NCBI GenBank assembly: GCA_977020255.1
Contig: CDROCS010000091.1
Coordinates: 124,001-188,000 of the forward strand
Length of the DNA stretch: 64,000 nt
Reading direction: 5' to 3'
Source: Obrimoposthia wandeli
Lineage: Eukaryota
The position numbers were made by a program, and so were the translations under genes. This document shows, piece by piece, positions 38,901 through 63,620 of this stretch. The notes under the pieces were generated by a model. The model ran no database searches and was not told where the DNA came from. It saw only the letters and a list, made by a program, of their open reading frames with translations. The number at the start of each line of letters is the position of its first letter. Within the stretch, counting starts at the first letter, position 1.

Positions 38901-41900
38901 AGTGTTGATAAAAGTCATCGTTGTGGTCGTTTATGTGATCTTTCCAAAAGAAGTTGGGGAGATTGGTTTAGAAACGAAGATTGCCATGTGAAAGACGAAG
39001 ATTTAGAAGCATTTCTTGACGAAGACTCATATGAACACTGAATGTTGAATATTCGACTGTAATTAAGCGTTAAAAATAAATGGTTCAAGAACGGGGAAAT
39101 TGAATGTTGCGTGAACACTTGCGAATATTTACTCCGAATTACTGCTGGTGATGAAAAGTTGCTTATTACAGTAATCAAAAGAAAAGAAAATTATGTGTGA
39201 ATCCAACCCAGAATTTGACTTGATGATTGGAGTATTCAAAAGAACCAGATTTACTACCTGAAGATGGAAAAATGTCGTAGCTAGCAACGGGAAACATTTT
39301 GAATAAAGATTTTTCTATTTATTTTTCTATTTATTTTATTATTAGTTTTGTTTATTTTAAAGCGGAGGAAACCCTAACCCAAATTATAAATGTTCAATCT
39401 GCCCAACATTTCAAGGTCTCTTTGATAAAACGTTTGATGTAATTTGGACGTGTTTGTCTCTTTAACTGTAAATGCTTTTTAAATTATCCAAATGTATCGT
39501 TAACATTTAGATTATCTGTATTTCACAAAATTATTATCCCAATATATTCAAATAAATTAAGGGTACAAATTACAGTTTAAAATATGACAATTCAAAGTTG
39601 GAATCATTCAAGGGTCCGTAAATTAAAAAGACAATTAAAAGTTTTGCAAGAAAGCCAAGAAACTTTGATCTATATAACTAGAATTTGTTCTGTTAACTAT
39701 ACTTTTCTTTTTGTGCAACAAATTTTGTAATTTATGTAAAATACTAAAATGTTAAACTTAATTTATTTATATATATGTACTACTTATAAATAAAGGTGAT
39801 ACATGTATATTTTAATTATTAAAAAAATTAAAATTTTGGAAATGCCGATTCCAACTCTGTGACTATATTCCAACCTTTAACCCATTGTTTTATCAGCACA
39901 AAGTAACGTGATTCTGAAAATTATTCAAAATTTATCTATTTCAAATATTTTGTTTATAACCTAATACATGCTAGTAAGAATGATGATATAATTTTATTTA
40001 ATCTGTTAGTTTTGGAATTCTGTCCTTAATAAGTAGGCATTTAACTCGTAAATTCTTAAGGGAGAATGTTTTACTGAAGTGTCTTCCTTGACTCAGTCTT
40101 AACTCTGATGGTTGTCAATTGTACTTCTTCGGTCCTTTGTCTCCTTTTTCGACCCTAATTCTTGGCAATTCAACGTCTTTCTTCTATGAGTGTTTATCTT
40201 GATGATCTGAAGTATTTTGTATGAATTATCGTCTTATTGTCGTGATCCAACTCTTCTGCTGCTTCATTGACTTTTATACGAAATTGGCTCTGCTGTATGT
40301 TGAAGTTGCTGCCTGATGATTTGCTGAATTCGGACTGTTTATATTTTTACTCTATCCACATTTCTTTGCAGACTTTTGTGATTTGCTAGCAGTAGCTACG
40401 TTGCTTTTCCCATTAATCTACAACTCCACTACGCTGAAATTCTACAATAGCATCAATTATTAGTCATTCTCGGGCGACTTCTCAGTCTCAGAGATCACCC
40501 GCGGCCATTTAATCTGTTAATTGACAGTTTCTTATTTTCTATTCAGTTAAAAATGCTATTGACCCCATACCAATGAAGGACAGAAGTTATCGAAAAGCGC
40601 ACATGGGAACATGTTAATCATTTCTGTGGGTATGGAAACATTTAAGCTTATGGTCGGGAATTACAGTTTTAGCAATATGAAAATGACAAGCACAATATAA
40701 AAGCAACGTACTATATATACACTAACATGCACGTATTTGAAAATAGTTTATATTAGAAGTCAGCTATTTCTGTGAAAGATATAAATAAATAACATTATGA
40801 CGCAATCTTTATTAATTTAATTATTTTACAAGACATGCTATTAGAGATATTTCCTTAGTATATTTCCGAGAAATTTGAAAGAAACTGAAATGAGATAAAA
40901 TCGAAATCAACTTCCAGCCGCATAAAAATGAAACCAACTCTATAATGACGGGAATGTCGCCCCCACTGACCTTATCCTTGACTACAACCTGACCCGGAGC
41001 CTCGTGGTAGTACACACCAAGGTTGTACCGCGCATCAGCGTTGCCCAAGGCAGCAGCCTTCTCGTAGTAGGCCAAGGCTTGATGTAGGTTTCTGTACTTG
41101 GTCTCATGTAGCCAACCCAGCGCGGTCAGAGCTCGTGGATCCTGTAAGTGGGTCAGATTGCATTAATATATCTCTGCCGAACAGTGGTTCCAAAATGAAA
41201 ACTTATTAAGCAGTGTATTTCAGTTTGCCGTTTAGGAAGATTCAAATCACTTTCTAAGTCATCCAACTGACCCTGACGTTTCCACGTTTCCTAAACTGTA
41301 TTCGTAATATCATTCGCTATAATAATCTCAGCAGTATCTACCACAGATCAGAATCTTTATAAATTACAAAGTGAATTTTATCAATTAAGTATAAAAATTT
41401 TTAAAATGCCTATTCTAGAAGTAACATTAACATACTGAAGCTAACTTTTGGAAACGGGTACAATAATTTTGAACAAATGTTTACTTTATCAGAGTTGAAA
41501 ATCAGAACGAATGATCATGATCATAGAACGTATCAAATACATCAAAACATGGCAAGGAGTAAAGATTAATTGTTAACTTGAGGCAACAACTCATTCCCTG
41601 TGAAGAACTGATACAATGTAAAATGTCTGTTTGTCAACATGTTTGTGATTTGTCAACGATGTCGTGGCAATCCAATGTCGAGGGCATTCGTCTGTCTCCG
41701 AGATGATCCTTCTACCGTAGAAGTGATAAATGCATCCCACTCGAGCAAAATCTATTCAATCGACGAATATCGTATTTTACGAAATAATGATATTTGTTTT
41801 ATTCAGCTTACCGTTTATATCGAGGGCAACTTTGAACAGTTACCGACAAATATAATTTTTGATGGATTTGTGTTTTCGCTTATTTCATATTTCCCCCTGG

Positions 41901-42916
41901 AAATCAGCCAGTTCAAGAAGATCTTCCATTGTGTAAAGCATAAAATAAACATAAAACTAATTTTAAAACCTTTTGACGTCTGAAACCTCAGCCCTCGGCA
42001 GCATAAATTAATAATGAATAAATGAAATCACCAAAACGGAACGAAGGGTTGTCATAAATATCGAAAAAGCCGTCAGTTGTAATTTTATGGCGATTTCAGT
42101 GCTGAGTCCATCAGTTAAGACTTAAGCGAGAAGATAATTGCTGCAATTTCTGAGCAAACAGAGACAGAAAATCCGTTTCAGTTAATTATTTGAGTTAATT
42201 GAAATTTTAAATTCCACCAGAAATTTCACAACCAAAAGAAACATTTTCATGTAATTTCAGCCAAAAACTTTGATTCTAAAATAAATAATTATTGGGAGCC
42301 TGAGCCTTGCCATCAATATAACACCATCAAATCGGAAACTTTGAGTAGTAAATTGTCTGAATTTTTCAATATTTGAACAGTTTCTCACTGCCAATGCAGA
42401 ACCATCGTCCGCTTGTATGCATACCCTCACAACGCACGATTTGGATTTTGTCCTCTTTGTCCCCATTTCTTCTTAAATTTATTAAATTGCAATCTCAATT
42501 TCTAGAAGTTTGAAACATCACATTATTTACTTTATACTTTATTCGAGCATTTATCGGCAGCCAAAGTAGGTCAAATGTGTTTAGTTCTTCAGTCATCTTT
42601 CAAAAATAATTTCAATTCTTTGTCCTTAATTATTTCTAATCTGTTAAGGTAAAATAGCAGTAAAAATGTAGGTCACACCAGCTGCCAGCTAGAAATGTAG
42701 GTCACTACTTACCTTCTCTCCGGCCTTCTCCAGTTCAGCCTTACCCGTCTCTACAGCTCCCGCCTCTTTCTGCTTGATGAGAACCACTCCGTAGTCGAAG
42801 TGATTGGCTGCATTTGCATCTGGACCTTGGGCAGCCTGACGCAGATAGCCTATGGCTCCCCCGAGATTGCGCCTGACGCCATTGCTGCCCCAGTACAACA
42901 TCCGACCCAGCTTCTC
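2794..42916 (-). CDS. SEL1L3: SEL1L3-like SEL1-repeat membrane protein, 3' part (10 exons, 420 aa + stop); 5' exons outside the window
   Basis: Exons 42713-42916, 40971-41141, 38558-38685, 31730-31813, 25408-25498, 22094-22187, 21153-21265, 20723-20871, 3156-3258 and 2794-2919 all have AG/GT boundaries. Their phases are compatible and they total 1263 nt (421 codons). The spliced protein has SEL1 repeats (ALAYYEKAAALGNADARYNLGVYY), then LYKKCEALSKKEEYIACRLA and a hydrophobic tail, collinear with the C-terminus of vertebrate SEL1L3 as I recall it. Confidence 0.85.
2950..3093. other. Assembly gap (144 N)
   Basis: Run of n. Confidence 0.99.
3156..3258 (-). CDS. SEL1L3: SEL1L3-like penultimate exon (CEALSKKEEYIACRLAIQRLQLEGFWKEFKWIIQ)
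   Basis: ctttcag acceptor, gttaga donor, 103 nt, phase 2/0. Confidence 0.82.
4796..6270 (-). pseudogene. Protein-primed family B DNA polymerase (pPolB) fragments, copy A
   Basis: GPACNECNL...VFHNLRGYDLHHI, GKGIFPY, YIDVNNLYGWALDQPLP (motif A) and YGKTVEN...LDRPNYIGQAV (motif B region), in different frames. Confidence 0.88.
6533..6973 (-). pseudogene. Polinton major capsid protein, N-terminal part (truncated)
   Basis: VKSELCIFD...IEFIIHASEEDYLDLNNTLLNIKLKVV...YTHKAIFDTLLNF matches the N-terminal pattern of Polinton MCP. Confidence 0.82.
7092..7370 (-). CDS. Putative Polinton core/virion protein (QxGxG motif)
   Basis: ELPYFIGKQYGSGG followed by a Lys/Ala-rich helix; lies between penton and MCP. 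Confidence 0.55.
   Translation of the reverse strand: MNTSIINFYRKSIQVGELPYFIGKQYGSGGFQTISRLAIQFIKKTGLSAATSVANALGETIGTTLTNPKNLISSLKENTVKEVKTLIPKFKK
7371..8363 (-). pseudogene. Polinton minor capsid protein (penton)
   Basis: N-terminal YIILPSNSCPSTQPNNTANQFTV...LDGEWEVAL near 8.3 kb. C-terminal MYIYTSLTDSVLVG...IEVNILDDSGNLIPF...SLTFHLRK in ORF 7371-7697. The middle is disrupted. Confidence 0.8.
8365..9389 (-). pseudogene. Polinton retroviral-type (RVE) integrase with chromodomain-like tail, copy A
   Basis: WQMDLMEM...KYILTCIDVFSRFA, QTDEGKEF, VVERFNRTLRER, NWSYEV...KFYKQELQ, YYAKWYGY. Frameshifted. Confidence 0.88.
9562..9830 (-). pseudogene. Putative Polinton core protein, copy A
   Basis: Homologous to 14800-15128 (LPYFK...FP.YVVDDL). 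Confidence 0.55.
9948..10573 (-). pseudogene. A32/FtsK-like packaging ATPase, copy A
   Basis: Walker A-like VVGSSGTRKT, Walker B VIVIDDL, then FKYSRDQTV and HGYLFLNF. Frameshifted. Confidence 0.85.
10655..11084 (-). CDS. Unknown Polinton-associated ORF remnant
   Basis: Overlapping ORFs between the TBP-like and ATPase genes; no motif recognised. Confidence 0.3.
11146..11517 (-). pseudogene. TATA-binding-protein-like gene, Polinton copy A (internal TGA at 11449-11451)
   Basis: MLTNINYKG...YTILIFRNRKCRIMGCK (repeat 1) and IQSITVCENL...SFDPEIFPGLRL...VNIF (repeat 2) resemble both halves of the TBP saddle. Confidence 0.72.
12117..12348. repeat. 47-bp tandem repeat, ~5 copies
   Basis: Unit tgtctcgctctcgtatatatcactaactaccttgggtgatgggcgaa, starting at 12117, 12164, 12211 and onward. 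Confidence 0.95.
12345..12576. repeat. Duplicated ~88-bp block with GC hairpin, plus ~21-bp subrepeats
   Basis: ggatggaaacacccaccgac...cccgccccttcggggcgggctctattctcac occurs twice; 8-bp stem cccgcccc/ggggcggg in the second copy. Confidence 0.85.
12634..12921 (-). CDS. Orphan 95-aa ORF divergent from Polinton copy B TBP-like gene
   Basis: Intact ORF with an acidic N-terminus in AT-rich DNA; no motif recognised. Confidence 0.35.
   Translation of the reverse strand: MHSYQRQLSTMDDSQRVLSDDEEMFEESDKDMYEEVKQYFKYKVRFLKKAQLIALVNPVTIERRKFSYYLSGIQKPDFQYLKQKIEKAVMLGSRV
13138..13649 (+). CDS. TATA-binding-protein-like gene, copy B (exons 13138-13267 and 13303-13649, putative 35-nt intron)
   Basis: Spliced product MKLVNINYKG...FTVVIFPTGNCRVMGCK...IQSITISANLG...FEPEIFPALSYL...VNIFSSGKVMILG. 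TATATAAA lies ~40 nt upstream of the ATG. Confidence 0.75.
13655..13936 (+). CDS. Unknown 93-aa ORF with hydrophobic C-terminus
   Basis: Intact ORF between the TBP-like and ATPase genes. Confidence 0.35.
   Translation: MFQMNNAIKRDNEVDRLADEIFSGKIRGKEILSELKNNDITRDNIEILVRSHVIREFRNRTQINKIIAKYSLINFCISSTIALTLYISIRKLL
13975..14621 (+). pseudogene. Packaging ATPase, copy B
   Basis: DPSGSGKT Walker A, VIIIDDL Walker B, IARHREVTVIFITQNLF, FKNPRD. One frameshift near 14203 and a stop near 14502. Confidence 0.88.
14800..15128 (+). pseudogene. Putative Polinton core protein with NGG|FIGVVIP amphipathic C-terminus
   Basis: Basic protein; a shifted frame ends KHNGGFIGVVIPVVASIISSII, like the xGG-F motif of Polinton and adenovirus-type core proteins. 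Confidence 0.6.
15200..15825 (+). pseudogene. RVE integrase, copy B (3'-truncated)
   Basis: RRRFPTRAY...WQMNLMEM...CIDVFSRFA...QTDLGK, AAVVERFNRTLRDRI. Confidence 0.85.
15895..16680 (+). pseudogene. pPolB C-terminal fragment, copy B
   Basis: YGKTVEN, LDRPNYIGQAVLDFSK, EDTDSFF (motif C), GLFKDE, LSSSDDKRY. Confidence 0.85.
18129..19420 (-). mobile_element. hAT (Charlie/Buster-like) transposase remnant with one terminal repeat
   Basis: Terminus CAGTGTTGCTCAACC at 18129. Fragments: TAKAGAPLGYGEKSINPAM, YQTDIREEML, ISTDGSALMRG, FYLSDHFKFVNESNLQLQG, FPTTWLVES...KRNKTDV. Confidence 0.75.
20723..20871 (-). CDS. SEL1L3: SEL1L3-like exon (AYFNLGYIVEH...QMAITLYK)
   Basis: gatgcag acceptor, gtgagc donor, 149 nt, phase 0/2; continues EPQ|AYFNLG. 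Confidence 0.82.
21153..21265 (-). CDS. SEL1L3: SEL1L3-like exon (LIKMADRSWYGSQLGEDRNISCAVELYIRAAVKLEPQ)
   Basis: gtccag acceptor, gtaaat donor, 113 nt, phase 1/0, SEL1 repeat. Confidence 0.85.
21318..22060. repeat. Low-complexity satellite of shuffled 10-nt units (ctgcaccaca / ctacatcaat)
   Basis: Direct inspection; fills most of the 828-nt intron 21266-22093. Confidence 0.95.
22094..22187 (-). CDS. SEL1L3: SEL1L3-like exon (EIAKRFIGRECQWYHYNASTQLREDSFIHAY)
   Basis: tttaag acceptor, gtgagt donor, 94 nt, phase 0/1. Confidence 0.82.
23480..24270 (+). mobile_element. R2-superfamily (NeSL/Utopia-like) non-LTR retrotransposon 3' remnant with restriction-like endonuclease
   Basis: FNFTLRARLNLL, CLLGCQVPETIGHVLEC (CCHC knuckle), AHHNNVL, then CPDLVGINHTRKCITII (PD..D region). 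Confidence 0.7.
24400..24700 (-). mobile_element. Possible RTE-like LINE 3' fragment
   Basis: LEGAGPGIEKMKRPVTWIW loosely resembles the RTE C-terminal LEG..EGKR..GRP..W motif; weak. Confidence 0.25.
25408..25498 (-). CDS. SEL1L3: SEL1L3-like exon (SLSLFYYLLGAFSGLELAQFNTALLCEEHQ)
   Basis: ccttgcag acceptor, gtaagg donor, 91 nt, phase 2/0. Confidence 0.85.
28550..29181 (-). mobile_element. Tc1/mariner transposon 5' part
   Basis: TA|CAGGGTGGTCC terminus at 29181 (minus strand). HTH SQRQIAKKLGISKTSVFRELR and the first catalytic Asp in KVWFSDEA. Confidence 0.78.
29281..30285. repeat. 71-bp minisatellite, ~14 copies
   Basis: Unit gcctctctcatgttactgccagttgtagacttgcatgtgtactcgggaatgtaacaatctcatctgcaata. 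Confidence 0.97.
31730..31813 (-). CDS. SEL1L3: SEL1L3-like exon (WARFVAEQNPRLGRFLSEGVRAFRRRQ)
   Basis: tttcgcag acceptor, gtgagt donor, 84 nt, phase 2/2; joins both neighbouring exons in frame. Confidence 0.85.
33367..34049. repeat. 61-bp minisatellite, ~11 copies
   Basis: Unit catgttgtcctatatggatagaggggattagatcggacatatccacctacgtgctaaatga. Confidence 0.97.
34215..35968. repeat. 8-bp satellite (gatgtgtt)n, ~220 units
   Basis: Direct inspection; variants gacgtgtt, gacatgtt, gatgtgct. Confidence 0.98.
37130..37790 (-). mobile_element. Tc1/mariner-superfamily transposase remnant
   Basis: LSDESTFRLDGVN, VHVWV, KQDGAP, YKPNTIRDLK across broken frames. Confidence 0.6.
38558..38685 (-). CDS. SEL1L3: SEL1L3-like exon (ILAFRHFEKAATQGQPHSGAMYARYLLTGVGSSVPRNPAVAL)
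   Basis: tttcag acceptor, gtaggt donor, 128 nt, phase 0/2, SEL1 repeat. Confidence 0.85.
38848..39310 (+). mobile_element. Mariner transposase remnant, internally deleted
   Basis: KDEDLEAFLDED and the C-terminal RWKNVVASNGKHFE*, typical of Mos1-like mariners. Confidence 0.65.
40971..41141 (-). CDS. SEL1L3: SEL1L3-like exon (DPRALTALGWLHETKYRNLHQALAYYEKAAALGNADARYNLGVYYHEAPGQVVVKDK)
   Basis: cttacag acceptor, gtcagt donor, 171 nt, phase 0/0, clear SEL1 repeat. Confidence 0.88.
42713..42916 (-). CDS. SEL1L3: SEL1L3-like exon (EKLGRMLYWGSNGVRRNLGGAIGYLRQAAQ...ELEKAGEK)
   Basis: Acceptor catcag at 42917-18 and donor gtaagt at 42712. Encodes a SEL1 repeat. The acceptor choice is slightly uncertain because an alternative cag lies 14 nt upstream. 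Confidence 0.8.
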
Positions 42917-43730
42917 CTGATGCGTCATTTCTGGTCTCAAATATGGGTCAAATACGCTTCATCTGAGACTACAAATACAATTACAAATATTCGGTAGGAA
43001 GCCAGGAAATTTCCATGCATAAAACATGTCTTTCGTGTAGGCGTAATCTCTTTTGATTGTTTTATTGATTAACACAACTGATTTAGAATTTTTCAGCCAG
43101 CTGACAAATTTACCAGGGGTCAATTTTGCTTCAAAAGGGTTCCCCTATCAATAAGAACTGGGATATGAAGTTTGAGAGATTCAAAGGTTCATACAGAACT
43201 GACTAGAAGATGTTCATAAGCAAAGAAGTCACAATGATGAATTGATTAGGAAATAAAGATTTGAGGGAAGACTGATATCTATGAAGATCTCTCTGAGGAA
43301 TCTCTCTATGAAGATTTCTCTTGTGGCAAGATATAACTTTCGTTTTTGAGGGTTTTGCAGTAGGTCTAAACGTGACTTAGATTTCACGAAATGAAAAGAA
43401 GGCCGTGATGTCCTCAGTGTAGGTGTTAGGTTTATGTTAGGTTTGAGAATTAAGAAATTTAAATATTTTAGTCGATTAAATACTAAAATAAAAATCCTTG
43501 AAAGCAAGGTTGAAAATTAAATTAAAATATTAATTTTAGTTTTAAAATTAAAATTAGTGGAATTTAGGGTAAAAATTAGGAGGACCACGAAGGTCGTGTA
43601 TGGTGTGAGGTGTATATAAGTTTAGAGTTAATTAACCAAAAGGGCAAAAAATTAATTAAGGAAAAGTCATTAATTTAAGAAGCTAATTAGTAACGTCAAT
43701 CAAGAGACGTTATTCAGGAAAAACTATTTT

Positions 43731-43912
43731 CAGCTGTCGATTGAGTGACAGATTCCAGTTCGCCCATTTTCAACGAGGTAAGCACATTTTCGTGCAGTAA
43801 GCTAAAATTCATTTTCAGCTGTCAATTGATTGACATTCCTTGCCTCTCCGGTATATTCAGAACTCAATAGTTAGCAGCTGTAAATTGATTGACGTTCATT
43901 GCCTCTATATAA
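43731..43912 (+). promoter_or_regulatory. Putative LTR promoter: three CAGCTG(T)nnATTGAnTGAC motifs and a TATA box
   Basis: CAGCTG at 43731, 43816 and 43875, each followed by attga(g/t)tgac; TATATAA at 43906. Confidence 0.5.
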
Positions 43913-44040
43913 GGCAGATAGGAAAAACACAAATCACAAAACATACGGGATCAACTACGAATCAACTACAGAGTCGACCGGACCACAAATCGGTAAGTAG
44001 TGATTTTGTGTTAGAGGAAAATAATTGATTTAGATAAATT

Positions 44041-44476
44041 ATTCAAAGTCAAAGTGCAAGTGATAAATCCGTGTATTCAAAGTCAAAGTGCAAGTGATAA
44101 ATCCGTGTATTCAAAGTCAAAGTGCAAGTGATAAATCCGTGTATTCAAAGTCAAAGTGCAAGTGATAAATCCGTGTATTCAAAGTCAAAGTGCAAGTGAT
44201 AAATCCGTGTATTCAAAGTCAAAGTGCAAGTGATAAATCCGTGTATTCAAAGTCAAAGTGCAAGTGATAAATCCGTGTATTCAAAGTCAAAGTGCAAGTG
44301 ATAAATCCGTGTATTCAAAGTCAAAGTGCAAGTGATAAATCCGTGTATTCAAAGTCAAAGTGCAAGTGATAAATCCGTGTATTCAAAGTCAAAGTGCAAG
44401 TGATAAATCCGTGTATTCAAAGTCAAAGTGCAAGTGATAAATCCGTGTATTCAAAGTCAAAGTGCAAGTGATAAAT
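44041..44476. repeat. 34-bp perfect tandem array, ~13 copies
   Basis: Unit attcaaagtcaaagtgcaagtgataaatccgtgt, with no spacers. Confidence 0.97.
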
Positions 44477-44565
44477 TTCGAAGACGATTCCGAAAGACCC
44501 TACGGACCCTGCATCGGACGTCCCACTAGTCGCAGTAACTGGTAAGAACACCAACTAAACCATTC

Positions 44566-44999
44566 ATTGCCCCTAGTTGGCAATTAGGATAAATTCATTG
44601 CCCCTTGTTGGCAATTAGGTTGTTTAACATATTTTAAACATATTCATTGCCCCTAGCTGGCAATTAGGATTTCCGACTCTTTAACAAAATCATTGCCCCT
44701 AGTTGGTAATTAAGATCAGCCATTTATTCATTGTCCCCAGCGACAATTAGGAATCATACCCAGACTTTTTGCCCGTAAGATTCATTGTCCCTAGCTGACA
44801 ATTAGGTTCATTCATTGTCCCTAGTTGACAATTCGGATAAATACTCATTGTCCCTAGTTGACAATTCGGTAAGACTCATTGTCCCTAGCTGACAATTCGG
44901 CTCGTTCATTGTCCATAGTTGACAATTAGGAGTAAGTTTTTATTGTCATCTTGACAATTAGGTTTTTAGGAGACCCATTGTTCACAGTGGACAATTCGG
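44566..44999. repeat. Array of 12 short inverted repeats ATTG(C/T)C-N5-7-G(G/A)CAAT
   Basis: For example attgcc-cctagtt-ggcaat, attgtc-cctagct-gacaat and attgtc-atctt-gacaat, separated by variable linkers. Confidence 0.85.
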
Positions 45000-45488
45000 G
45001 TCAAACACACAGCAGATAGAGTTAAGGAACCAAGAAACTTTATCTAGAGATAAGAAGTAGGAGCAAAGAAATTTAAGAGAGTTGCGTTATAGATTAACCA
45101 ACCTAAGTAAGAAGAATAAACCTAAAAGCTTAATCACCTGAACGTAAAATCGATACGTGGTTCATCCCCACTTCTTGTAGAGACTTACAGAAGTCCTTTA
45201 GGAATTTTATCATACTTTTTAGAAATACGTACATAAACGTATTGTTGTGTTAGTTACGTGAATTACAAATAAACAATTTCCTACATTAGAACAAGTTGTT
45301 TTTGCACCCTTCAGACTAAGAGACATCAAATCAAATACCTTCAGATAGTACAAGAGATTAGGCAACCATAACACTAAGTAGGCCACGACCAACTTTAAGA
45401 CCTGCTTCTAATCGAACTCACGTTGGGGCCCTCCGCACATTAAGAGGCTCTATACCAAGTTTCGTATAGAAACCCCAACATATTAAAG

Positions 45489-45506
45489 TGGTGCCCCGAG
45501 TGAGGA
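45489..45506 (+). promoter_or_regulatory. Primer-binding site complementary to elongator tRNA-Met 3' end
   Basis: TGGTGCCCCGAGTGAGGA is the reverse complement of TCCTCACTCGGGGCACCA, one mismatch from the vertebrate elongator tRNA-Met end as I recall it. Confidence 0.8.
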
Positions 45507-46530: not shown

Positions 46531-46903
46531 AAAAAATTGTAAAATAAGAATTGTGAAATAAGATAAAAATAATAAGTATATTGATATCGTAAACGAATAC
46601 ATAATTGATAAGACAACGGATAATAGAAAAGGACCCGCGTTTAATACTAGAAGACAAAGCCAGATTCCCAAGGAAGAGACAAATAATAATAAAGTTAACC
46701 GAATTGAACAAGTTCCCCAAACAGATAACAAAGTAACAAAAAAGACTAGAGTCGAAGAAAACGTATCAGAAAGAGACGTAAATCAATCAGCAGTTTCAAC
46801 CGATAGTTTTGATCTGACTGAGTTATTTGGTGACATAAACCCAGAAGAAATTGATAATCTTGAAGTTCAAAACCCAGAAGAAATTGAAATTGCCAATCCA
46901 GTA

Positions 46904-49900
46904 GTGATTGAAGAAGTTCAAGTAAATAATATTGAAGGAATAGTTGAAGACGATATAGTTGAAGATATGGCTCAACCAGGAGCTCAAGCAGATATTAATG
47001 CAGGAAATCATGTAGGTGACATGAATGCCGAGCAGTTGGCACAAGCTTTAAATGCGACGTTGAGACCCAATTTTTCAGGATCATTGCAGATTACAAAGTT
47101 TAAAGGAGATGAGGAAAGTATTTGTGACTTCCTCGCAGAATATTCGAGTTGTGCAGATGTTCAAGGATGGAACGATAAAGAAAAATGTGTCAGAGTACAG
47201 GCACATTTAACCGGATTAGCACTTGAAGTGTATAAACATTTGACAGAAGCAGAACGTTTAGACTGGCCAACGTTGGAAAATGCTTTTATTGGAAAATTGG
47301 TATTAGGAGATTTAGCCAAAGTAAATAAGCGACTCATGAGAGAACGGAAACAGAAACATGATGAAGGCGTGAATGAATACGCGTATGTTTTGAGAACCTT
47401 GGCCGCAAGAGCGTACCCAAGAAGAATAATGAGAAATCAGGACGGTATTCCTGTACCTCAAGAAGCACAAGCAGCGGAAAATGACCGGAACCAAAATGAA
47501 ATGGCAGAGGTTTTGTTAGATATATTTAGAGGAGGATTGAAAAAGGATATTAAAGTGTTATTAGCAGTATCGGATACAAATGATTTTGATAACGCCGTGC
47601 GAAAGGCGAGAGAGATAGAGAAAAATATAAAAAATAACGCAGCATTGGCAATCTACGCAATGACTGCAGGTGACGACGATAAGACAAAGGTCTTCGTGAA
47701 TAAAACAGAACCGAGTAATTTTCAGAATCGAAATTATGGACAAAATAAGTTTGAAAAAGTAGATGAATCCAGTAACGGAAATAGAGATAATTTCCGAAGT
47801 AGGAATCGAGATGATTCGAGAGGTAGAAATAATAGTGAGTCTTGGAACAGGAATCGAGATGATTCAAGAGGTAGAAATAATAATGATTCGTGGAATAGAA
47901 ATAGAGATGATTCCAGGAATAGATTTAATAGAGATGATTCAGGAAATCGTCAACCTTGGAGAGGAGACGATAGGAATTATAACGCCAACAGAGGAGAGCG
48001 AAGCGACTCTCGATTTGGAAATAATACAGGAAATAGTGACGGAAGATTCAATAATCGAGGAAGCGGTTTTGAATCGAATTTCCGAAGAAATGATTTTAGA
48101 GGACGCTACGATAATAGACAGAATAGTCGTCGAGTACAGTTCGAAGATGAACAAAATAAGATAGATATTCGAGGGAGAATAATGTGTTACACATGTAAAC
48201 AAATGGGTCACTATTCGAGAGATTGTACGAGAAGTAAAGAGTTCGGAGCTAACAGATTTGGAAATAATAATTTCGGTAATAATAATTTTGGAAATAATTA
48301 TAGAGGATATAATTCACCTCCGCCATGGAATAGAGGTGGTGGATATACTCCACAGCCATGGAGACTGAATAATCAGTATACAGATAGACAACAGTCACCA
48401 GGTAGATACAATAACTATGCAGATAGACAGCAAGGAGCTGAGAGATACAATAATTACGTAGGACAGCAAGGAGCTGAGAGATATAATAATTCTGGTAGAT
48501 ATAATAATAATAATGTTGACAAGACAAATAGTCGTGAGAGTTCGCCGAAACCGAAAGGAAATTTTAGTTATGTAAGCGATGACAGTGATAGGAATCGCGA
48601 AACCGAGCTGCGACGCGAAATAGATTTTGAGGATAGTGATAGTAAATTTGAACGAATGTTGGGAATAATTAAAGATTCACCACATACAAAGATGGCAAAT
48701 TCATCTACGTTGTCGAAACAAGAGAAAAGTCTACACTCAAGAGAAGAGATGAATGATTTAATGAATAGAATATTAGAAGCATATGAGACACCAATAGAGA
48801 AAACGTGTAACGCACAACCTATGACTGATCATGTGGAAGCAGCGAGAAATGCTACGAGTATGGAAGATGTAAAAAAGATAATTAGTGAAGCTAAGGAGAC
48901 GTTGAATCAACCGTTAGATGAAACGAGTGAAGCTCCAGAAGTTTTGGCCAAATTGCAAACAATTAAAGTGCACCGATTGGAAGAAGTACGTGCAGAATTG
49001 GTTAAACATAGTCATGATAACTTGGGTTACAAAGAAGTACCCCGAGGATTATTGAAAGGTTATGGTCGTTATGTACAGAGATCAAACCAAAAAGGAACGA
49101 TGAAAATTTCACTTCGATTAATTTCCGGACAGATAATACATGAAAAACTTAACGTGTATCAAACAATGAAAACGATTCGGAAAAAGTTGGCTGAGAAACT
49201 TGAAATTGATGGAATGAATATGTTGTTCCATTATAAAGGAAGATCACTAGATGATGAGGACGTACCAGTCGAGTTTGGATATCCGATAGGAAATGAATTA
49301 GAGGAAAAAATTGATGTCATCACTGTAGGACGTCAAGAGTTAGTAGATAATGAAGGATTAACCGAGATACTGAATTCTGCGTTAGAAATGATAAAAACGC
49401 CTATAGAAATTTTAGACAGTTCAAGTGAAAGCGAAGATAATGATGTAGCTGAAGCTTGGAACAAGACATCCACACCAGAACCGTACGTAACTGAATTACA
49501 AGACATGAATTTAGAAAATGAGTTGACAACTCCAGTGGTCGAGGTACCACCAGAACCAGATATAATTCCAATCAGACAAGATGAAGTCACGGATACAGCT
49601 AACCAAGTGAGACAAAACGAAACCGTAACCCAACTAGTAGGAGAAGACGAAGTCTCCGAGATTGTAGATTTGGATTCACCAATTTGGCATGCCGCATACA
49701 AAGATAGACAAGCAGAGCAAATGATGCGACAAAGTGAAGAGATTGGCCATGAAGAAGGACCAAGTCAAGAGATACAGTATAATGGTGAAACGTATGATCC
49801 AGGAGAGAATCAAACTGAGTATCAGTATTTTCGAAGAGGACCTGGAAGACCTAGAAAAGGCGAAAGTATATTACGAAATGTTCTAACAGCACCACAAACT

Positions 49901-50662
49901 GATGAAGAGAGACATCTAAGTATTGGACAGTTAGCAGCGTCATTAGAGCAGTATAGTGCAGAGAGGAATGAAGATATCAGATGTGATATGAATTCGGAAA
50001 CTCCAAGTAGTAAAGATATACTTACGGGAATTCTCAGGCAAGTGAAGCCGAAGTTGTTCAAAATGTACAGAGATGAAACAACCGATATAACAGACAATTT
50101 GACTAAAGCAGTCAGATCACAGATGTCTGCAGTAAAGAGAATGACCGCGAATAATGTATACCATGCATCCATAGATAGATTTTATGACGGTGAAGTTTTA
50201 GCGAGACTATGTGGAAACCAGACTACAAATAAAAAGTTAATTACAGCGATCACATATCTATGTTTCCAATTGACGGAACGAACGAGCCAACCTCACGAAG
50301 TCAAACAAGGAATAAATGAAGCGATGTATTTGATCGAGAATGTGTTACAGAGACGAATTGACGAAAATGGAGGTTGGGCAAAATTAAGTGACTATGCTAA
50401 AACCATTGTGGAAATGAATGAAGACGATGACGAACAATGTCATGAGAATCGTCAAAGGGAAAATAAACAATACCGTCCGAAAGAGAGAAACAATCAACCA
50501 AATATGTCCACAACAATGATGATGATGATGTTAGTAATGTTTATGGGAATGCAACAGGCATCAGGATTGATAGCATATGACTGTAGCATACCAAAGATGG
50601 GACAAAAGTATTCACTGCTTGACAGCGAAGACTGTCCAGAATCACAACCAAATCAAAACTAG
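46904..50662 (+). CDS. gag: Gag polyprotein: capsid, CCHC knuckle, ubiquitin-like, AT-hook, Bcl-2-like, env signal peptide
   Basis: ITKFKGDEESICDFLAEY...QAHLTGLA...RKQKHDEGVNEY (Ty3/Gypsy capsid) and CYTCKQMGHYSRDC (48185-48226). First in-frame ATG at 46967. Confidence 0.9.
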   Translation: MIEEVQVNNIEGIVEDDIVEDMAQPGAQADINAGNHVGDMNAEQLAQALNATLRPNFSGSLQITKFKGDEESICDFLAEYSSCADVQGWNDKEKCVRVQAHLTGLALEVYKHLTEAERLDWPTLENAFIGKLVLGDLAKVNKRLMRERKQKHDEGVNEYAYVLRTLAARAYPRRIMRNQDGIPVPQEAQAAENDRNQNEMAEVLLDIFRGGLKKDIKVLLAVSDTNDFDNAVRKAREIEKNIKNNAALAIYAMTAGDDDKTKVFVNKTEPSNFQNRNYGQNKFEKVDESSNGNRDNFRSRNRDDSRGRNNSESWNRNRDDSRGRNNNDSWNRNRDDSRNRFNRDDSGNRQPWRGDDRNYNANRGERSDSRFGNNTGNSDGRFNNRGSGFESNFRRNDFRGRYDNRQNSRRVQFEDEQNKIDIRGRIMCYTCKQMGHYSRDCTRSKEFGANRFGNNNFGNNNFGNNYRGYNSPPPWNRGGGYTPQPWRLNNQYTDRQQSPGRYNNYADRQQGAERYNNYVGQQGAERYNNSGRYNNNNVDKTNSRESSPKPKGNFSYVSDDSDRNRETELRREIDFEDSDSKFERMLGIIKDSPHTKMANSSTLSKQEKSLHSREEMNDLMNRILEAYETPIEKTCNAQPMTDHVEAARNATSMEDVKKIISEAKETLNQPLDETSEAPEVLAKLQTIKVHRLEEVRAELVKHSHDNLGYKEVPRGLLKGYGRYVQRSNQKGTMKISLRLISGQIIHEKLNVYQTMKTIRKKLAEKLEIDGMNMLFHYKGRSLDDEDVPVEFGYPIGNELEEKIDVITVGRQELVDNEGLTEILNSALEMIKTPIEILDSSSESEDNDVAEAWNKTSTPEPYVTELQDMNLENELTTPVVEVPPEPDIIPIRQDEVTDTANQVRQNETVTQLVGEDEVSEIVDLDSPIWHAAYKDRQAEQMMRQSEEIGHEEGPSQEIQYNGETYDPGENQTEYQYFRRGPGRPRKGESILRNVLTAPQTDEERHLSIGQLAASLEQYSAERNEDIRCDMNSETPSSKDILTGILRQVKPKLFKMYRDETTDITDNLTKAVRSQMSAVKRMTANNVYHASIDRFYDGEVLARLCGNQTTNKKLITAITYLCFQLTERTSQPHEVKQGINEAMYLIENVLQRRIDENGGWAKLSDYAKTIVEMNEDDDEQCHENRQRENKQYRPKERNNQPNMSTTMMMMMLVMFMGMQQASGLIAYDCSIPKMGQKYSLLDSEDCPESQPNQN
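49100..49328 (+). other. Ubiquitin/SUMO-like domain within Gag ORF
   Basis: MKISLRLISGQIIHEKLNVYQTMKTIRKKLAEKLEIDGMNMLFHYKGRSLDDEDVPVEFG follows the beta-grasp pattern. Confidence 0.65.
49990..50400 (+). other. Bcl-2-like domain within Gag ORF
   Basis: BH3-like LRQVKPKLFKMYRDETTDITDNL, BH1-like IDRFYDGEVLARL and BH2-like VLQRRIDENGGWAKL, in the expected order and spacing. Confidence 0.6.
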
Positions 50663-52370
50663 AAGTTCAAGGTGTTGAAAACTACTTTGTGTATCAGGAT
50701 GTTGATAAAGTACAAGTAGAAGTGAAAGAATGTTCAATCCATTCAAGTTATCACGAATTCTATTGGGGTCATAGAAGTTTATGTCGGAAATCACACCTAC
50801 CACACCGTACAAGGCACATAAGGTTTTGCCGAGAGATTGCGAAGACGCATTTCGAACGGGAACAATAGAGGTAGACAAGAATTACAAACCTGAAGTAAAA
50901 ATTGGAGTGAGACGATACAAAACAGTCACGAGAGTCGGACAACGATGGGCTGATGGATCTTGTGACGGAGAAACAAAAAACGTGCGTGGAACCAAAGTAT
51001 CTGAGTTAGTAATGGATGTAACTTACAAAATCGAATTAAAAACATGGACCGCCAATTTTGATAAAAAGACACAACTAATGATGAAGTATCCAGAATGTAA
51101 AATGACAGATACATCTTGTTTTACAGGTGAATCCACAATTGTGTATAACATAAATCCGAAACAATGCTCTTTAGTATTTTTGAAAGAGATTAGCTTTAAT
51201 AAAATAAAAGGATTCCTGTATAATAAAGATGGAGAAGGATTCCTGTATAATAAAGTTGGAAAAGGATTGCTAAATGAAACAAGACCAATTCCAATGACAA
51301 AGACACCTACACTGTTAATGGCAACATCAATAGAAGAAGGATTGATATTTATTAAAAAGAGAAACAAAGCGCGATGCGGAATGACTGTTAGTACCACAAA
51401 CTATCCAGGAATAGTTTTGTCTAAAGAAGCAATAGCATTGGCAGAAACCAAGCTAAAACCAAAAGATATGCAGCTACACACGTATTTTAATAATAAAATT
51501 GATTTCTATTATCATAAAGGATTGATGCAAATGGAACAGTTATATCGAATGATGATCGAAAGAGATTGCCAGCTAAACAAAGAGATCGTAAGAACAAAAT
51601 TAGCATTAGCTATTACGAATCCAGACATGGTAGCACCATTATTACCCTTGGATGAAGGAGTATTTGCTAAAACCATGGGAGAAGTATTGTATACTTACAA
51701 GTGTAATAAAGTAGAGGTACAGTTGAGGAAAACAGATCGATGTACGAGTGAATTGGCAGTAACGTATAATTTAAAAGATCTTTTTGTTGAACCAATCACG
51801 AGAATGTTACTTCCAAAAGACACACCAACTAAAGAAATCAGCTGCTCTAATATAATGGCACCTGAATATCAGATGACGAATAATCTATGGATAACGTTAC
51901 CTGATCGAAAGCCAACGACAACCCCAGCGATGATAAGAATGACGAATCTTAAAGGTAAAATGAAATTCCAAGCGGTGGAAAATATGGAGAACGCAGGATT
52001 GTACAATGAAAAAGATTTAAAAGCAGCGTGGAACGAAATAATGTTTCCAGTAAGAAGAGCCAGAGTACTTACAGAGATGGTACATCGAGCATTACCGCCA
52101 GGAGCGAGATATGCGAATTTCGATATGTTATTATCGCCAAGTAATTTCAAGGAAGCAGCACATCAGACACTTAGAAAGATGTGGGGGAAATTCCTTGTTT
52201 TAGGACAATTATTTTCGGGTATCATAGGTATTTATGTTATAATTAAATTTGTGCAGGTAATTATAGCCCAGGTGTTGTCTACGTATAGTTTATACAGGAT
52301 AACCGGAATCACCTGGCAACTTATAATTGGATGTTTTCCAGTTTTAGCAAAATATCTAATGCACCATCAT
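50504..52370 (+). CDS. env: Env: chuvirus/Monjiviricetes-like class III fusion glycoprotein (frameshifts near 50655 and 50780)
   Basis: Signal peptide followed by GLIAYDC; GEVLYTYKCNKVEVQLRKTDRCTSELAV; C-terminal hydrophobic MWGKFLVLGQLFSGIIGIYVIIKF...YSLYRITG. Confidence 0.82.
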
Positions 52371-52721
52371 CACGAGAACGAGTTGCGAGCCCTCAAGAAG
52401 GAACAACACCAAACGAGAACCATGATGAGAGAACCAAGAAACTATCGAGACGACAACGACGACGATAATGATAGTCCAGAAGTATATGCAAAGATACCAC
52501 GAAAACCAAAGATTCCGTTACCAGACAAGGAAGAAGTGGCGTTAAACCTATATCCAATGAAGGAATTGAAGGAAGAGAAGGAAAATTTCAAGAGAGGCAT
52601 CTTAATGACAAGATGGCCTAAAGTGAGCTACAGTGAAATTCCACAAGCAGAGGAAAAAGACAAAAAAGATAATTCCAGAAGAATTCTGAAATCTAGAATA
52701 TCAAATGAGAATCCAAATGCT

Positions 52722-53255: not shown

Positions 53256-53480
53256 ATGAGATTCGAGAGAAAGAGGCGAAATATATTAGAACAGTACTAT
53301 TCAAAAGGAATGGCACGTAAAATGGCAAGATCAGGTTTAGAAATGTTAAACGCGACAAGCAGTTATGGTCATGAGATAGTAGTACGATGCGTATGGTGTA
53401 GAGTAAAGTTCAGAGAATGGGAAAAGAATGAAAACCCAATGAGACGTCATAAAAGAGATGCACCAAATTGTCCATTTCTT
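53256..53480 (+). other. BIR domain
   Basis: CVWC-x16-H-x6-C (RCVWCRVKFREWEKNENPMRRHKRDAPNCPFL), the exact canonical BIR spacing. Confidence 0.9.
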
Positions 53481-53845: not shown

Positions 53846-54126
53846 AACAAAATAAAGCAAAAAGAACAGAAAACAGAATGTATAATCGAATACCAAATCA
53901 CACGAAAAGAGATTTTGGCTCAACAAGACACACCGGTAGTGTCATTCGTGAGAAGATTATATCCAAAAGAAGCAGAAAGAATCAGAGAATTGGTAGAATT
54001 AAAAATAAAAACTACGCGAAACGGATACGGATCGATTTTGAATTACTGCGAGATAAAGATGACAGTACAATTGAAACAAAGAAGGAGTACATAAATGAAC
54101 TAGAATACGTACTAGAAGATCCGGAA

Positions 54127-54270
54127 TGCGCAGTTTGCATGGTCAACAAAATAGAAGTTGCCTTTCTACCATGCGGACATGTAAGAACATGTCGGAGATG
54201 TGCGAATGAAATGGTATCATGTCCGATTTGTCGAAGAATAATAGATCGACAAGTGAGAAACATTAGATTT
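54127..54270 (+). other. IAP-type RING-HC finger
   Basis: CAVCMVNKIEVAFLPCGHVRTCRRCANEMVSCPICRRII. Confidence 0.9.
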
Positions 54271-54357
54271 CACTATCCAAACATAGGAAGTGGACTGACA
54301 GAGTGTAATAATTCAATAAATACAATATACCATATGGGAAACATAAATGGAGCACAG

Positions 54358-57300
54358 CGACCAGCAGCTATCATTAGAGTAAATAATTTAAGAGTAAAAG
54401 CCTTGATTGATACAGGTGCTGTAGCTTCGATAGTAAGTGAAGACTGTTTGACAGAGGAACAGAAACGAACAATGGCAGAACCAGATGAATTCTTGGTATC
54501 AGTCAATGGAGACCCTGTAAAAGTGACGGGAATATTACCATGTACATTTATAATTGGACGTAATACGATCACTATACCAGTTAGAATCATGAAAGAATGT
54601 CCTGAACCTACAATTTTAGGAATGGATGTATTATCACAACTTAAAGGGATAAGTATTGATTTACAAGATCCAAGATTGAAGGATAGCACATCAAACAGAC
54701 AAATAAACCAAATTGATGTAATTATAGAGAATCCTATAAAAATCGGTAAAAGATCACAATTTCTCATTCAAGGTCACACATTATCAGAAGATAAAGGACC
54801 AGTTGTGTTCGAACCATCACGAGATTTCATAGAGAAATACGAATTACCAGTTGTGAGTACAGTATGCCTGATCGAAAACCACAAAATACCAGTTAGACTG
54901 ATGAATACAACCAACAATGACATCCTATTATACAGAGGAATGAGGTTGGGAAAGATAGCACAGATGGAGAATTCCACTGTATGCGCTATGAAACTCGATA
55001 AAGATACGAATGATTACGAAGAAATAGTAATCCAATCAGAAAGACTGACAACTAGAGAAAAGCAATTACTTGATCTAATACATAAATTTCCGAAAGTAAT
55101 TGCAAAAATCCATATGACATAGGAGAAACACCTGTCATAAAACATACAATACCACTGACAGAAGACAAAGTAGTCAGAAGAAGACCATATCGAGTACCAT
55201 TACAATTACAAGATGAAGTAAAAAGTCAGATTGAAGATATGTCTAAAACAGGAGTAATTAGACCGAGTTTTCGCCATTCTCAGCACCTGTGGTGTTGGTA
55301 AGAAGGATGGGAAAATGAGATTCTGTATAGATTTCAGAGAACTGAACAAGATCACAAGAAAAGATGTGTATCCATTACCTAGAATCGAAGAGATGCTCGA
55401 TAAATTGGGTAATTCAGATTATTTTACGACATTGGATTTGCAGAGTGGATACTGGCAAATCGAGATAGAGGAAGAGGATAAACACAAAACAGCCTTTTCC
55501 TGCGGAGATGGATTATACGAATGCGAAAAGATGCCATTCGGACTGACAGGAGCTCAGCAACATTTCAGCGTTGCATGAATTTTGTACTCGCATCGTGTGC
55601 AAACACGATGGTTTATATCGATGACATAATAATATTTTCAAAGAAAACGTTCGAAGAACATTTAAAAAATCTTGAAGTTGTATTTAAAAGACTGGAAAAC
55701 GCTAAATTAAAAGTTAAACCTACAAAATGCGAATGGGCTAAGAGGCGAAGTAACATTTTAGGGACATATAGTATCGAAAGAAGGCATTCGACCTGATCCA
55801 GCAAAGATCGAGAAAGTAAAAGCGCATTTAGCGCCAAAGACTGTTAAGGAGATACAGAGTTTTTAGGTCTTTTTTGCGAATTATTATAGACGATTTGTTG
55901 AACATTTTCCAGATATAGCAACACCATTGAGAAAGACGGCAGAGAGAGAAAAGATGAGAAGTTCATATGGGGAGAAGAAGCCCAACAAGCGTTCGAGCAT
56001 TTAAAAAGAAAGATTGATAAAAGCACCGATATTGCGTTTCCAGATATAAACCGACAATTCATACTTATGACAGATGCAAGTAACTATGCTGTAGGAGCAG
56101 TATTGGGACAAGAGGATGACGAAGGAAGAGAACACGTCATCGCGTATGCGAGTAGAGGATTAAACAGAGCTGAAAGAGGATACTCTGTTATCGAAAAGGA
56201 ATGTCTAGCCATAGTGTATTCATGTAGACAGTACAGACACTATTTGCTAGGACAAAAAGTATTCCTGTATACAGATCACAAACCACTACAGTTCTTGTAT
56301 AAACATAGAGATGAGAGATGAGTAGATTAAACAGATGGTTTCTAAAATTGGCCGAATTCGATCTAGAAATCCGTTATAGAACCGGAAAGTCGAATGGCAA
56401 CGCAGATTGAAATTTATCGAGATTGACAAATGTAGACGAGAAAGGAAACATAATTCCAGAAGAAGATGTAGAAACCAATGATCAAAAAGGAGAAGCAAAT
56501 CTACTGACGATTTTGCTAAAGACGGGTAAAATAGACAAAGAGATCATCAAAGAACAGAAAGAAGATGAAGAACTGAGTCTAATTAAAGAATTGTTGGTGA
56601 AAAGGAGATCTAAACCGATGAAATGACGAAAAAATACTCGATAAAAGAAGGAATCTTGTATATTGTCAATAACGTCGGAAAGATAGTAGTAGTAATTCCG
56701 AAGTCATTGAAAACAGTATGATCAGTATCACGACGGAACACTAGGAGGACATCTGTCAGGGCGAAAGACAATAGCCAGAATCAAAGAGAACATGTACCAT
56801 TGGGATGAGTATGGAAGACGACATAAAACAATGGTGTAAACAATGTAAAGTATGTTTAACCAGAAAAGACGCATGGAACTCGTACTAAAGTTCCGTTGAA
56901 ACCAATGCCACTTGTTCCTTAGGCACCAATGGAATTCACAGCGATGGATATATTAGGACCATTGAGAGAATCAAGTAAAGGGAAACAAGTACGTCATAGT
57001 ATTTACGGACTACATGACGAGATGGTAGAAGCATATCCATGCAGGGCAACCAGAAAGCTGAAACAATAGCGCAAATCTTAGTGGAAGAGATAATATTTCG
57101 ATACAGGTGCCTAGAAAGTTGTTAACGGATCAAGGAAAGAACTTCACTGGAGAAGTCATAAAAGCAGTATCGAAGATATTCGGAATTATGAAGTTACAAA
57201 CTTCACCCATATCACCCACAGACAGATGGTCTGGTAGAAAGGTTTAATAAAACTTTATGTATGATGGTACAATCCTATTGCTCAGACAAGCAAGAGGATT

Positions 57301-59369: not shown

Positions 59370-59760
59370 ATGCCACCAATGAGTGAGATCATTCCAGGTA
59401 AGTTATACCTCGGAAATGTAGAGGATGCAACAGATGAAAGAAACTGTTGGAACAAAGGGATAACATACGTGATCAGCGTTACAATGAATCACAAATCACA
59501 ATATCAGACGAAATCAGAGCTATGACATTAAGAGTAAAAGACTCAATGGACGCTAATCTTCCTCCAGATAGTTCATTAGAAACAAACGAAATACTTCACA
59601 GAGAACTCGGAACCGAGAAAGTGTTGGTACATTGTCAGAAGGAATTTCTCGATCAGCAACTCTAGTATTAGCATATCTAATAAAGACTAGACAGATGCAG
59701 GTACTAGAAACGCTAAAATACCTACAGGAGAGAAAGAAGTATTGCAAACCCAAATCTTAA
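59370..59760 (+). pseudogene. Dual-specificity protein phosphatase (frameshifted)
   Basis: MSEIIPGKLYLGNVEDA...GITYVISV, VKDSMDANL, KVLVHCQK/GISRSATLVLAYLI; restoring one G gives HCQKGISRS. Confidence 0.85.
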
Positions 59761-59859
59761 TTTTTTGGGACAGTTGGCAATTACCAACTTCTGTTACAGA
59801 ACAAAGACAGTTGGACGACATTCCTGAGGATCAAAGGAAAGAATTCCTCCAAGCATTAT

Positions 59860-63019: not shown

Positions 63020-63280
63020 AGTGTGTGAAATATGTAAGAAATATCTAGAAGTGATTGTACAAATAGTAGAAATATATAAAACTCATGTAGAAATTAATCA
63101 TCATCATGTATTTAGAATGTCGAAAGAGATACTTATGTTTGAAGATCTAACCGAACGAAGAACAAGACCCGAAACCTGCAACCATTTACACCACGAGGAA
63201 TGTTTATCGACATGGATCCAGAACTTATGAACAGTTCAGGACATTCAACATACTTGTTGCCCTGTCTGAAGACAGAATTC
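63020..63280 (+). pseudogene. RING-H2-like finger remnant
   Basis: CEIC...CNHLHHEECLSTWIQ...CCPV*RQ, with in-frame stops. Confidence 0.5.
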
Positions 63281-63448
63281 ATAAGATTCATCATGTTAGA
63301 ACCAACCAAGAGGATGTATTCTGTTTGGAGAATTTAGGAGAATCTTGGTGTTATTACTGTTTGTCAGATCGGCAAAATCAGACCACTTTTGTAAACATCA
63401 CACAACCACCAGTCCTCAATCAACCCAAATTTAGCATCAACCCTCGTA

Positions 63449-63620
63449 ATGTCACGGAAATGTTCCATCTGCTACGAAAAGGAGCATCGTGGACTTCTAC
63501 CAAGCCCAACAACTGCGACCACCTCTTCCGTCAGATGCCTCGAGACGTGGATCCCCATTGCCAACAGCAACAGCCCCTCGACTTCCCAACCTGCCCGATG
63601 TGCAGGCAACCTTCTCAGTA
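63449..63620 (+). pseudogene. RING-HC finger (frameshifted)
   Basis: CSICYEKEHRGLLPS/PNNCDHLF/VRCLETW/FPTCPMCRQ across alternating frames. Confidence 0.65.

Follow-up and report, generated by a model that had tools for sequence, protein, structure and literature searches.

The 64,000-nt stretch of Obrimoposthia wandeli DNA analysed here (the window: contig CDROCS010000091.1 of assembly GCA_977020255.1, positions 124,001 to 188,000, forward strand) harbors a long terminal repeat (LTR) element of the Ty3/gypsy type, spanning about 23.8 kb when measured from the start of its 5′ LTR through the following LTR, which lies immediately beyond the window. Its polyprotein contains, at 49991-50420 (+) and in frame with Gag, a Bcl-2-like helical domain whose homology to Bcl-2 proteins we consider nearly certain from profile comparisons. 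We lean slightly towards reading it as a diverged Bcl-2 domain in a Burro-type polyprotein that would serve as a membrane-tethered pro-survival decoy, restraining host killers of the Bak/Bax type.

Location, frame and motifs of the Bcl-2-like domain

A single stop-free frame (46562-50662, 1366 amino acids (aa) from stop to stop) encloses Gag, its zinc knuckle, a ubiquitin-like domain and the Bcl-2-like domain. The first-pass annotation had described an uninterrupted 1252-aa open reading frame with a Bcl-2-like domain fused to Gag. Homology, motif positions and the single frame bear out the in-frame arrangement, but the domain adjoins Env and not the capsid, and some 590 aa, ubiquitin-like domain included, separate it from the zinc knuckle. 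The frame is likewise free of stops, but its stated length counts from a GTG at 46904 (1231 aa from the first ATG at 46967) and its end is a frame break just inside Env, not a natural stop. Both long-frame copies scanned elsewhere in the assembly continue for 3298 stop-free residues from the domain through Env, a protease, BIR, RING, a second protease, reverse transcriptase, RNase H, integrase and a phosphatase. The features on which the following argument relies are:

46967..50662 (+): open frame from the first ATG, with Gag, ubiquitin-like domain, Bcl-2-like domain, Env signal peptide and first Env residues
50192..50242 (+): BH1-equivalent, helix 4 with EVLARL and then TNKK in place of NWGR (from alignments)
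50354..50377 (+): BH2-equivalent, RIDENGGW without the first Trp (from sequence, 108 loci)
50504..50566 (+): Env signal peptide, predicted membrane anchor of the Gag-Bcl-2 part (from hydropathy; position common to 7/7 relatives)

BH3-, BH1- and BH2-like motifs had been reported in this order, and they fared unequally when counted over 109 supplied loci, at least two of which are the same place. The NGGW core of BH2, within IDENGGWAKL at 50357-50386, is kept in 108/108 loci, whereas the first Trp of BH2 occurs in 0/108, replaced by R, Q or H; six of seven outside relatives keep this Trp and the remaining one has Tyr. No LxxxGD motif of the BH3 type was found in helix 2, which reads LTKAVRSQM or a near variant in 109/109 loci. 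EVLARL (50192-50209), previously taken for a degenerate NWGR, is one helix off: it corresponds to helix 4 (the ELF half of BH1), and the residues aligned with NWGR are TNKK at 50225-50236. This position reads TNKKL in 104/108 loci, TSKKL in three and TNKML in one, so that in the element the Trp and Gly of NWGR are lost and the basic residue (K/R) is retained.

By hydropathy, the Env signal peptide, which follows BH2 by 42 residues and whose cleavage site we infer from a small-residue pattern, is the sole hydrophobic stretch in the frame. Anti-apoptotic action at the mitochondrial step, as proposed at first, is plausible, but no targeting signal seen in the frame supports that site.

Evidence for Bcl-2 homology

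Pfam gives Bcl-2 E-values of 0.13 and 0.068 (14.2 bits) for the window domain alone. Across 25 element copies Bcl-2 is the most frequent Pfam family (24/25, best E 0.00085), followed by Nipped-B_C (20/25), and in a blind genome-wide Pfam Bcl-2 scan the 16th and last match was an old element copy (E 0.62). Searching with the domain together with the beginning of Env gave 272 matches, of which 150 were listed; the domain is present in seven of 152 proteins examined, many of the others being fragments or unrelated Env types unable to show it. These seven outside relatives are only 14-23% identical to the window domain; Pfam Bcl-2 matches four of them (E 7.7e-5 to 0.012) and the other three not at 0.05.

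A profile restricted to three element copies and the seven outside relatives, with zero host rows, carries most of the argument. Against PDB, 60/60 matches listed belong to the Bcl-2 family, the best being Bcl-xL (E 2e-4) and then BAX (E 0.011), and HHalign places this profile on five planarian Bcl-2 proteins with 95.1% probability (E 3.4e-8). The profile homology reaches from helix 4 to helix 8. When the seven outside relatives alone form the profile, the window domain scores 60 bits and 1000 shuffles reach 9.7 at most. Because 24/25 copies match Pfam Bcl-2 and the relatives-only profile gives 60 bits, we judge the resemblance to be more than chance.

Several searches returned little. No significant match to PDB was obtained with the single window sequence, and single-sequence and low-diversity PDB searches yielded stathmin-like and SUS1 noise only; HHalign with a low-diversity alignment stopped at 10.5%, searching protein word indexes with the domain gave no match, and a metagenome DNA scan found 0 relatives among 99 pattern matches. 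Domain matches in three environmental runs were short, low-depth and mostly near-identical pieces. A GGW that arose by chance in an unrelated helical spacer would fit the single-sequence PDB result, as well as a BLASTP E-value of just 0.055 between the window domain and host Bcl2-2 and the 18/2000 shuffles that equal or exceed the window score against a five-sequence host profile. Such a coincidence is extremely improbable all the same: the independent relatives and the element-only profile largely refute it, and the helix pattern fits in both of the structure models described below. A BH2 pattern matched by 0/20000 shuffles adds little weight, as the pattern was drawn after the motif had been seen.

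Structure models

Two kinds of model were compared. In the unguided, single-sequence model 40/49 listed Foldseek rows are of the Bcl-2 family, a family heavily represented in PDB, and a wide structure search placed three Bcl-2 chains in the top 37, none standing out. A second model, guided by 12 planarian Bcl-2 rows in its input, reached a pLDDT of 75.7 in 2/5 runs; with the fold so guided, 34/34 Foldseek rows are Bcl-2 folds (best E 0.011) and ranks 1-34 of the structure ranking are all Bcl-2 folds, the first other fold having Z 4.7. The viral proteins A179L, KsBcl-2 and DPV022 stand near the top of this ranking. Measured against single structures, the guided model is closest to Bcl-xL (Z 10.0, root-mean-square deviation 3.2, 118 residues aligned), with Z 5.8 for A52 and Z 4.6 for B14. 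What the guided model offers is compatibility of the predicted structure with a Bcl-2 fold, not independent proof of it.

Selection and distribution of the domain

The Bcl-2-like domain is under strong purifying selection. Its ratio of nonsynonymous to synonymous substitution (dN/dS) is 0.07-0.11 between the window and older copies (6 pairs), compared with 0.34-0.47 in the acidic linker (5 window pairs; the sixth had 12 codons only) and 0.16-0.20 in the ubiquitin region (3 window pairs); when three old copies are compared with one another, the ratio is 0.16-0.31. These pairs are non-independent, and the domain exceeds its upstream flanks in dS, yet its dN is lower too.

The domain lies directly before the Env signal peptide in all seven relatives that carry it. 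Ten related gypsy-type Env polyproteins or fragments that extend upstream of Env, the three with the best Env scores among them, have no such domain, which is therefore not essential. An Env tree of 19 rows mixes domain-bearing and domain-lacking elements in a weakly supported group (86/80) and does not tell a single gain followed by losses apart from repeated gains; a one-change count on this tree omits ten ungrouped rows and is given no weight here. In the closest Env relatives by score (P0004, P0006 and P0008), a basic RGRP-type motif like that of the window at 49835-49860 is followed by the signal peptide without a Bcl-2 domain, a pattern that, to judge from the sequences, looks like domain loss.

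This distribution also bears on a purely structural role, in which the domain would be a matrix-like helical module that, together with the signal-peptide stub, keeps Gag at the membrane, next to the element's own Env, during particle assembly. The constant place between Gag and signal peptide in 7/7 relatives speaks for such a role, as does the short linker after the domain, which is likewise constrained (dN/dS 0-0.17 over ~30 codons, window pairs). We nevertheless find it improbable: with ten polyproteins or fragments having the same signal peptide and Env but not the domain, assembly does not need it, and BH2 and the basic residue of BH1 are kept across sequences of only 14-23% identity.

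Host genes and the question of the donor

The host is likely a planarian, judging from its sequences. Its Bcl-2 gene L021 is 81% identical to Bcl2-2 of S. mediterranea, and a multi-copy COX1 in the assembly reads best under translation table 9 (flatworm-type). The flatworm-type COX1 occurs as several copies within long contigs, likely nuclear copies. The assembly itself is mixed, with many stop-free COX1-family genes that are likely bacterial and a table-5 COX1 of another animal. Planarians possess Bak, Bcl-2 and cytochrome c release, according to part of the text of PMC7022251.

Three host Bcl-2 genes (L021, L025 and L026) have their domain in one intronless open frame, which shows no obvious tail anchor. 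Two adjacent host genes are Bak-like and carry SWRN and SWRS instead of NWGR, one of them with a clear BH3 exon; exon L030, whose best PDB matches are BAK, has the SWRS at the NWGR position.

Scored against host proteins, the element profile favors S. mediterranea Bcl2-2 (19.7 bits) over the two Bak-like exons (10.3 and 7.9). We consider it more likely that the donor was a host Bcl-2 gene of the pro-survival type, captured long ago. Under the alternative of descent from a Bak-type killer, the domain would promote membrane permeabilisation or death for particle release. The Bak-like exon L030 is indeed the best match to three older copies under BLOSUM45 (z 6.8-6.9; z 5.8-6.8); under BLOSUM62, in turn, the TWGR-type host sequences L022 and L024 tie with or beat it. 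Bak oligomers need a BH3 motif, which the element domain does not have. The wider profile places both Bak-like exons below Bcl2-2, there is no BAK among the 60 PDB matches listed, and the domain travels with an inhibitor of apoptosis (IAP) module, all of which makes a killer descent very improbable.

Other parts of the element and its surroundings

The remaining parts of the element, from one LTR to the phosphatase, are as follows:

43435..45480 (+): 5′ LTR, TG...CA, about 2 kb, with internal tandem repeats (ends common to four more copies downstream of the window; 34-bp array inside)
45489..45506 (+): primer-binding site starting TGG, 8 bp past the LTR end (from sequence)
47201..47416 (+): Gag capsid-type domain, Retrotrans_gag, under the cut-off (E 0.0063)
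48185..48226 (+): single CCHC zinc knuckle (zf-CCHC E 1e-5)
49100..49330 (+): ubiquitin/SUMO-like domain, under the cut-off (Pfam ubiquitin E 0.0033; E 0.031 in relative P0009)
50567..52455 (+): Env, fusion glycoprotein of Monjiviricetes type, broken near its start here (PF24664 E 1.8e-79)
about 52197-52290 (+): Env C-terminal membrane segment
52731..52992 (+): aspartyl protease 1, DTG present
53256..53478 (+): BIR domain (E 2.6e-9)
54118..54247 (+): RING finger, with BIR an IAP-type module (E 1.5e-12)
54355..54646 (+): aspartyl protease 2, DTG present
55298..57258 (+): reverse transcriptase, RNase H and integrase, with many frame breaks in the window copy
59403..59785 (+): dual-specificity phosphatase, broken here, in frame with Pol in other copies (DSPc E 1.5e-33 in those copies)

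The IAP announced beside the domain by the first-pass annotation is thus confirmed as BIR and RING in the same polyprotein. Both aspartyl proteases flank this BIR-RING module, and several relatives with no BIR match also have at least two protease domains. RING-like pieces are seen near 62955-63750, past the integrase. Many BIR matches of the genome belong to short frames, 341 or 194 aa long, so a second high-copy IAP-bearing element exists besides the present one.

From 11304 first-look candidates, which are not to be equated with copies, 150 domain matches were scored; they are 98-100% identical and none has an internal stop. Open frames longer than 4000 aa were counted by eye in six of the 150. 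Against one long-frame copy, the window copy shows 96.9% identity and 77 gap openings; the latter may reflect decay or assembly error.

No target-site duplication was found between the flank of the 5′ LTR and the last downstream LTR. Downstream of the window follow three more LTR-to-LTR units of ~5.2-5.3 kb each, in tandem and with shared LTRs, each with primer site, leader and 3′ end and without Gag-Pol; they may be a non-autonomous tandem derivative. The downstream LTRs share 79-97% identity with the 5′ LTR, and divergence is greatest in the nearest one. Exon-like frames that we take to be SEL1-repeat-like directly precede the 5′ LTR, at 40821-42958 (-), and the element may be inserted into or next to a host gene. 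Further upstream, 34275-35971 holds 212 copies of an 8-bp unit, and arrays of 61, 71 and 30 bp are found at 33366, 29279 and 21317, respectively.

Comparison with Burro elements and with known Bcl-2 proteins

For Burro/GYPSM1 elements, PMC6431247 cites Grohme et al. 2018 and Jurka 2007. We set the present element beside Burro/GYPSM1 of Schmidtea mediterranea and the Burro-like element of Dugesia tigrina by published description, and its assignment to the Burro type is highly probable from its layout. Shared are a likely planarian host, thousands of copies, LTRs, one polyprotein of ~5000 aa and the one-frame order of Gag, CCHC, Ubi/SUMO-like domain, BCL2-like domain, mononegavirus-type Env and protease, with BIR present, Env in frame between gag and pol, and the order protease, reverse transcriptase, RNase H, integrase.

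Differences lie in size and cargo. Burro elements exceed 30 kb and have two or three CCHC knuckles, whereas the present element measures ~23.8 kb with 2-kb LTRs and has one. Its two proteases flank BIR-RING, unlike those of Burro, and its in-frame phosphatase after the integrase is not mentioned for Burro in section 7 of PMC6431247. No Pfam match to MATH_TRAF_C, ankyrin or dUTPase-like domains was found over the element parts scanned. Some Burro domains were found only with HHpred, and MATH is missing from ORF1 of D. tigrina (PMC6431247).

The first-pass annotation knew of no retrotransposon with both an IAP and a Bcl-2 domain. PMC6431247 in fact describes planarian Burro elements as having both BIR and a BCL2-like motif, with the BCL2 between the Ubi/SUMO-like domain and the in-frame Env, and suggests that these elements meddle with host apoptosis. 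BCL2 cargo in Burro elements has been in print since 2018-2019 and the present domain is not a new discovery; what is added here is homology shown by a profile free of host rows, the finding of strong selection, a corrected BH1 register and the Env signal peptide as sole anchor. The BIR-RING IAP of Burro1 (B-IAP) reportedly protects planarian stem cells from caspase-mediated death, as related second-hand in part of PMC13465017. BIR plus RING as cargo of a planarian giant gypsy element is common to both, and the Burro1 work concerns the IAP. BURRO1 is expressed upon PIWI loss, in an account whose available portion makes no mention of Bcl (PMC8532177). Our literature search found no functional test of the BCL2-like domain, the primary Burro papers being outside its coverage.

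Like canonical Bcl-2 proteins, the element domain has profile homology from helix 4 to helix 8, xxGGW at BH2 and a basic residue at the BH1 Arg position; unlike them, it has no BH1 Trp and Gly, no first BH2 Trp, no BH3 GD and no free C-terminal tail anchor, and it is embedded in a polyprotein. Viral Bcl-2 proteins of double-stranded DNA viruses are the subject of a review (PMC11209288, in the part available). The viral proteins KsBcl-2, BHRF1, A179L, F1L and ORFV125, and the groove-less A52 and B14, are similarly captured and strongly diverged folds in mobile genomes; they are encoded by free-standing genes of double-stranded DNA viruses, whereas the domain described here forms part of the polyprotein of a reverse-transcribing element and is fused to an Env signal peptide.

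Proposed mechanism and function

We propose that a host Bcl-2 gene, more probably of the pro-survival type, would have been captured long ago by the element. The internal Env signal peptide would insert into the endoplasmic reticulum (ER) and be cleaved on the lumen side, so that Gag, the ubiquitin-like domain and the Bcl-2-like domain stay cytosolic, held by a signal-peptide stub standing in for the tail anchor of Bcl-2. Tethering at the ER rather than at mitochondria is suggested because the Env signal peptide is the only hydrophobic anchor. The C-terminal membrane segment of Env would bring the rest of the polyprotein, IAP included, back to the cytosol, and an element protease may release the domain from Gag.

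In canonical partners the BH1 Arg binds the Asp of BH3, and the Gly of NWGR matters for partner binding; a viral protein with SPGR still binds, 250-fold weaker (both from part of PMC9027176). The K/R retained in the element could still pair with the BH3-helix Asp, though in a changed groove and probably with weaker or narrower binding, and we put the chances of pro-survival action by BH3 capture as evenly balanced. The Bcl-2-like domain would then act upstream of caspases and BIR-RING at the caspases themselves, letting particle-making cells survive.

The domain could instead keep a Bcl-2 fold with a closed groove and bind another host partner at the ER, in stress, autophagy, calcium or innate-immune signalling, much as poxvirus A52 and B14 do without a groove. 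We hold this to be unlikely, though it draws on the loss of Trp and Gly of NWGR in the element family and in 7/7 relatives, the absent BH3 motif, the anchor being an ER signal peptide and the phosphatase and RING domains, which would suit a broader signalling kit. The basic residue at the BH3-pairing position is nonetheless kept in the family and all seven relatives, the best matches of the profile are Bcl-xL, and the guided model is nearer to Bcl-xL than to A52 or B14, with the reservation that it was guided.

A number of results count against a membrane-tethered decoy that restrains Bak/Bax-type killers. Groove-less Bcl-2 folds inhibit NF-kB, not death (PMC2494871, in part). The Gly of NWGR is never Gly, being Lys or Met in element copies and other residues in all seven relatives; no mitochondrial-type C-terminal tail anchor was detected in the frame by hydropathy; and ten related polyproteins or fragments do without the domain. 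Every Pfam score remains under the curated PF00452 cut-off of 31.4 bits (14.2 bits for the window, 23.6 bits for the best relative). The unguided model has a pLDDT of 40 and no Foldseek match at E 0.001, and the guided model is partly circular in that planarian Bcl-2 rows steered its fold. Finally, pairwise scores had earlier favored the Bak-like exon L030, so that any assignment of the donor is tentative.

A bolder version of the decoy, which we regard as tentative and rather doubtful, is that the captured Bcl-2 fused to the Env signal peptide would be a rebuilt tail-anchored inhibitor of death or stress at the ER, with Trp and Gly lost and K/R kept in BH1, gained once and lost repeatedly, and working with the IAP towards the survival of planarian cells. 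If so, a reverse-transcribing element would carry a functioning viral Bcl-2, and its copy number would perhaps make it one of the animal's major sources of Bcl-2-type protein. The sister elements without the domain offer natural controls. If the domain is functional, a transposon would tune the host cell-death threshold at two steps, in an animal that regenerates via stem-cell survival.

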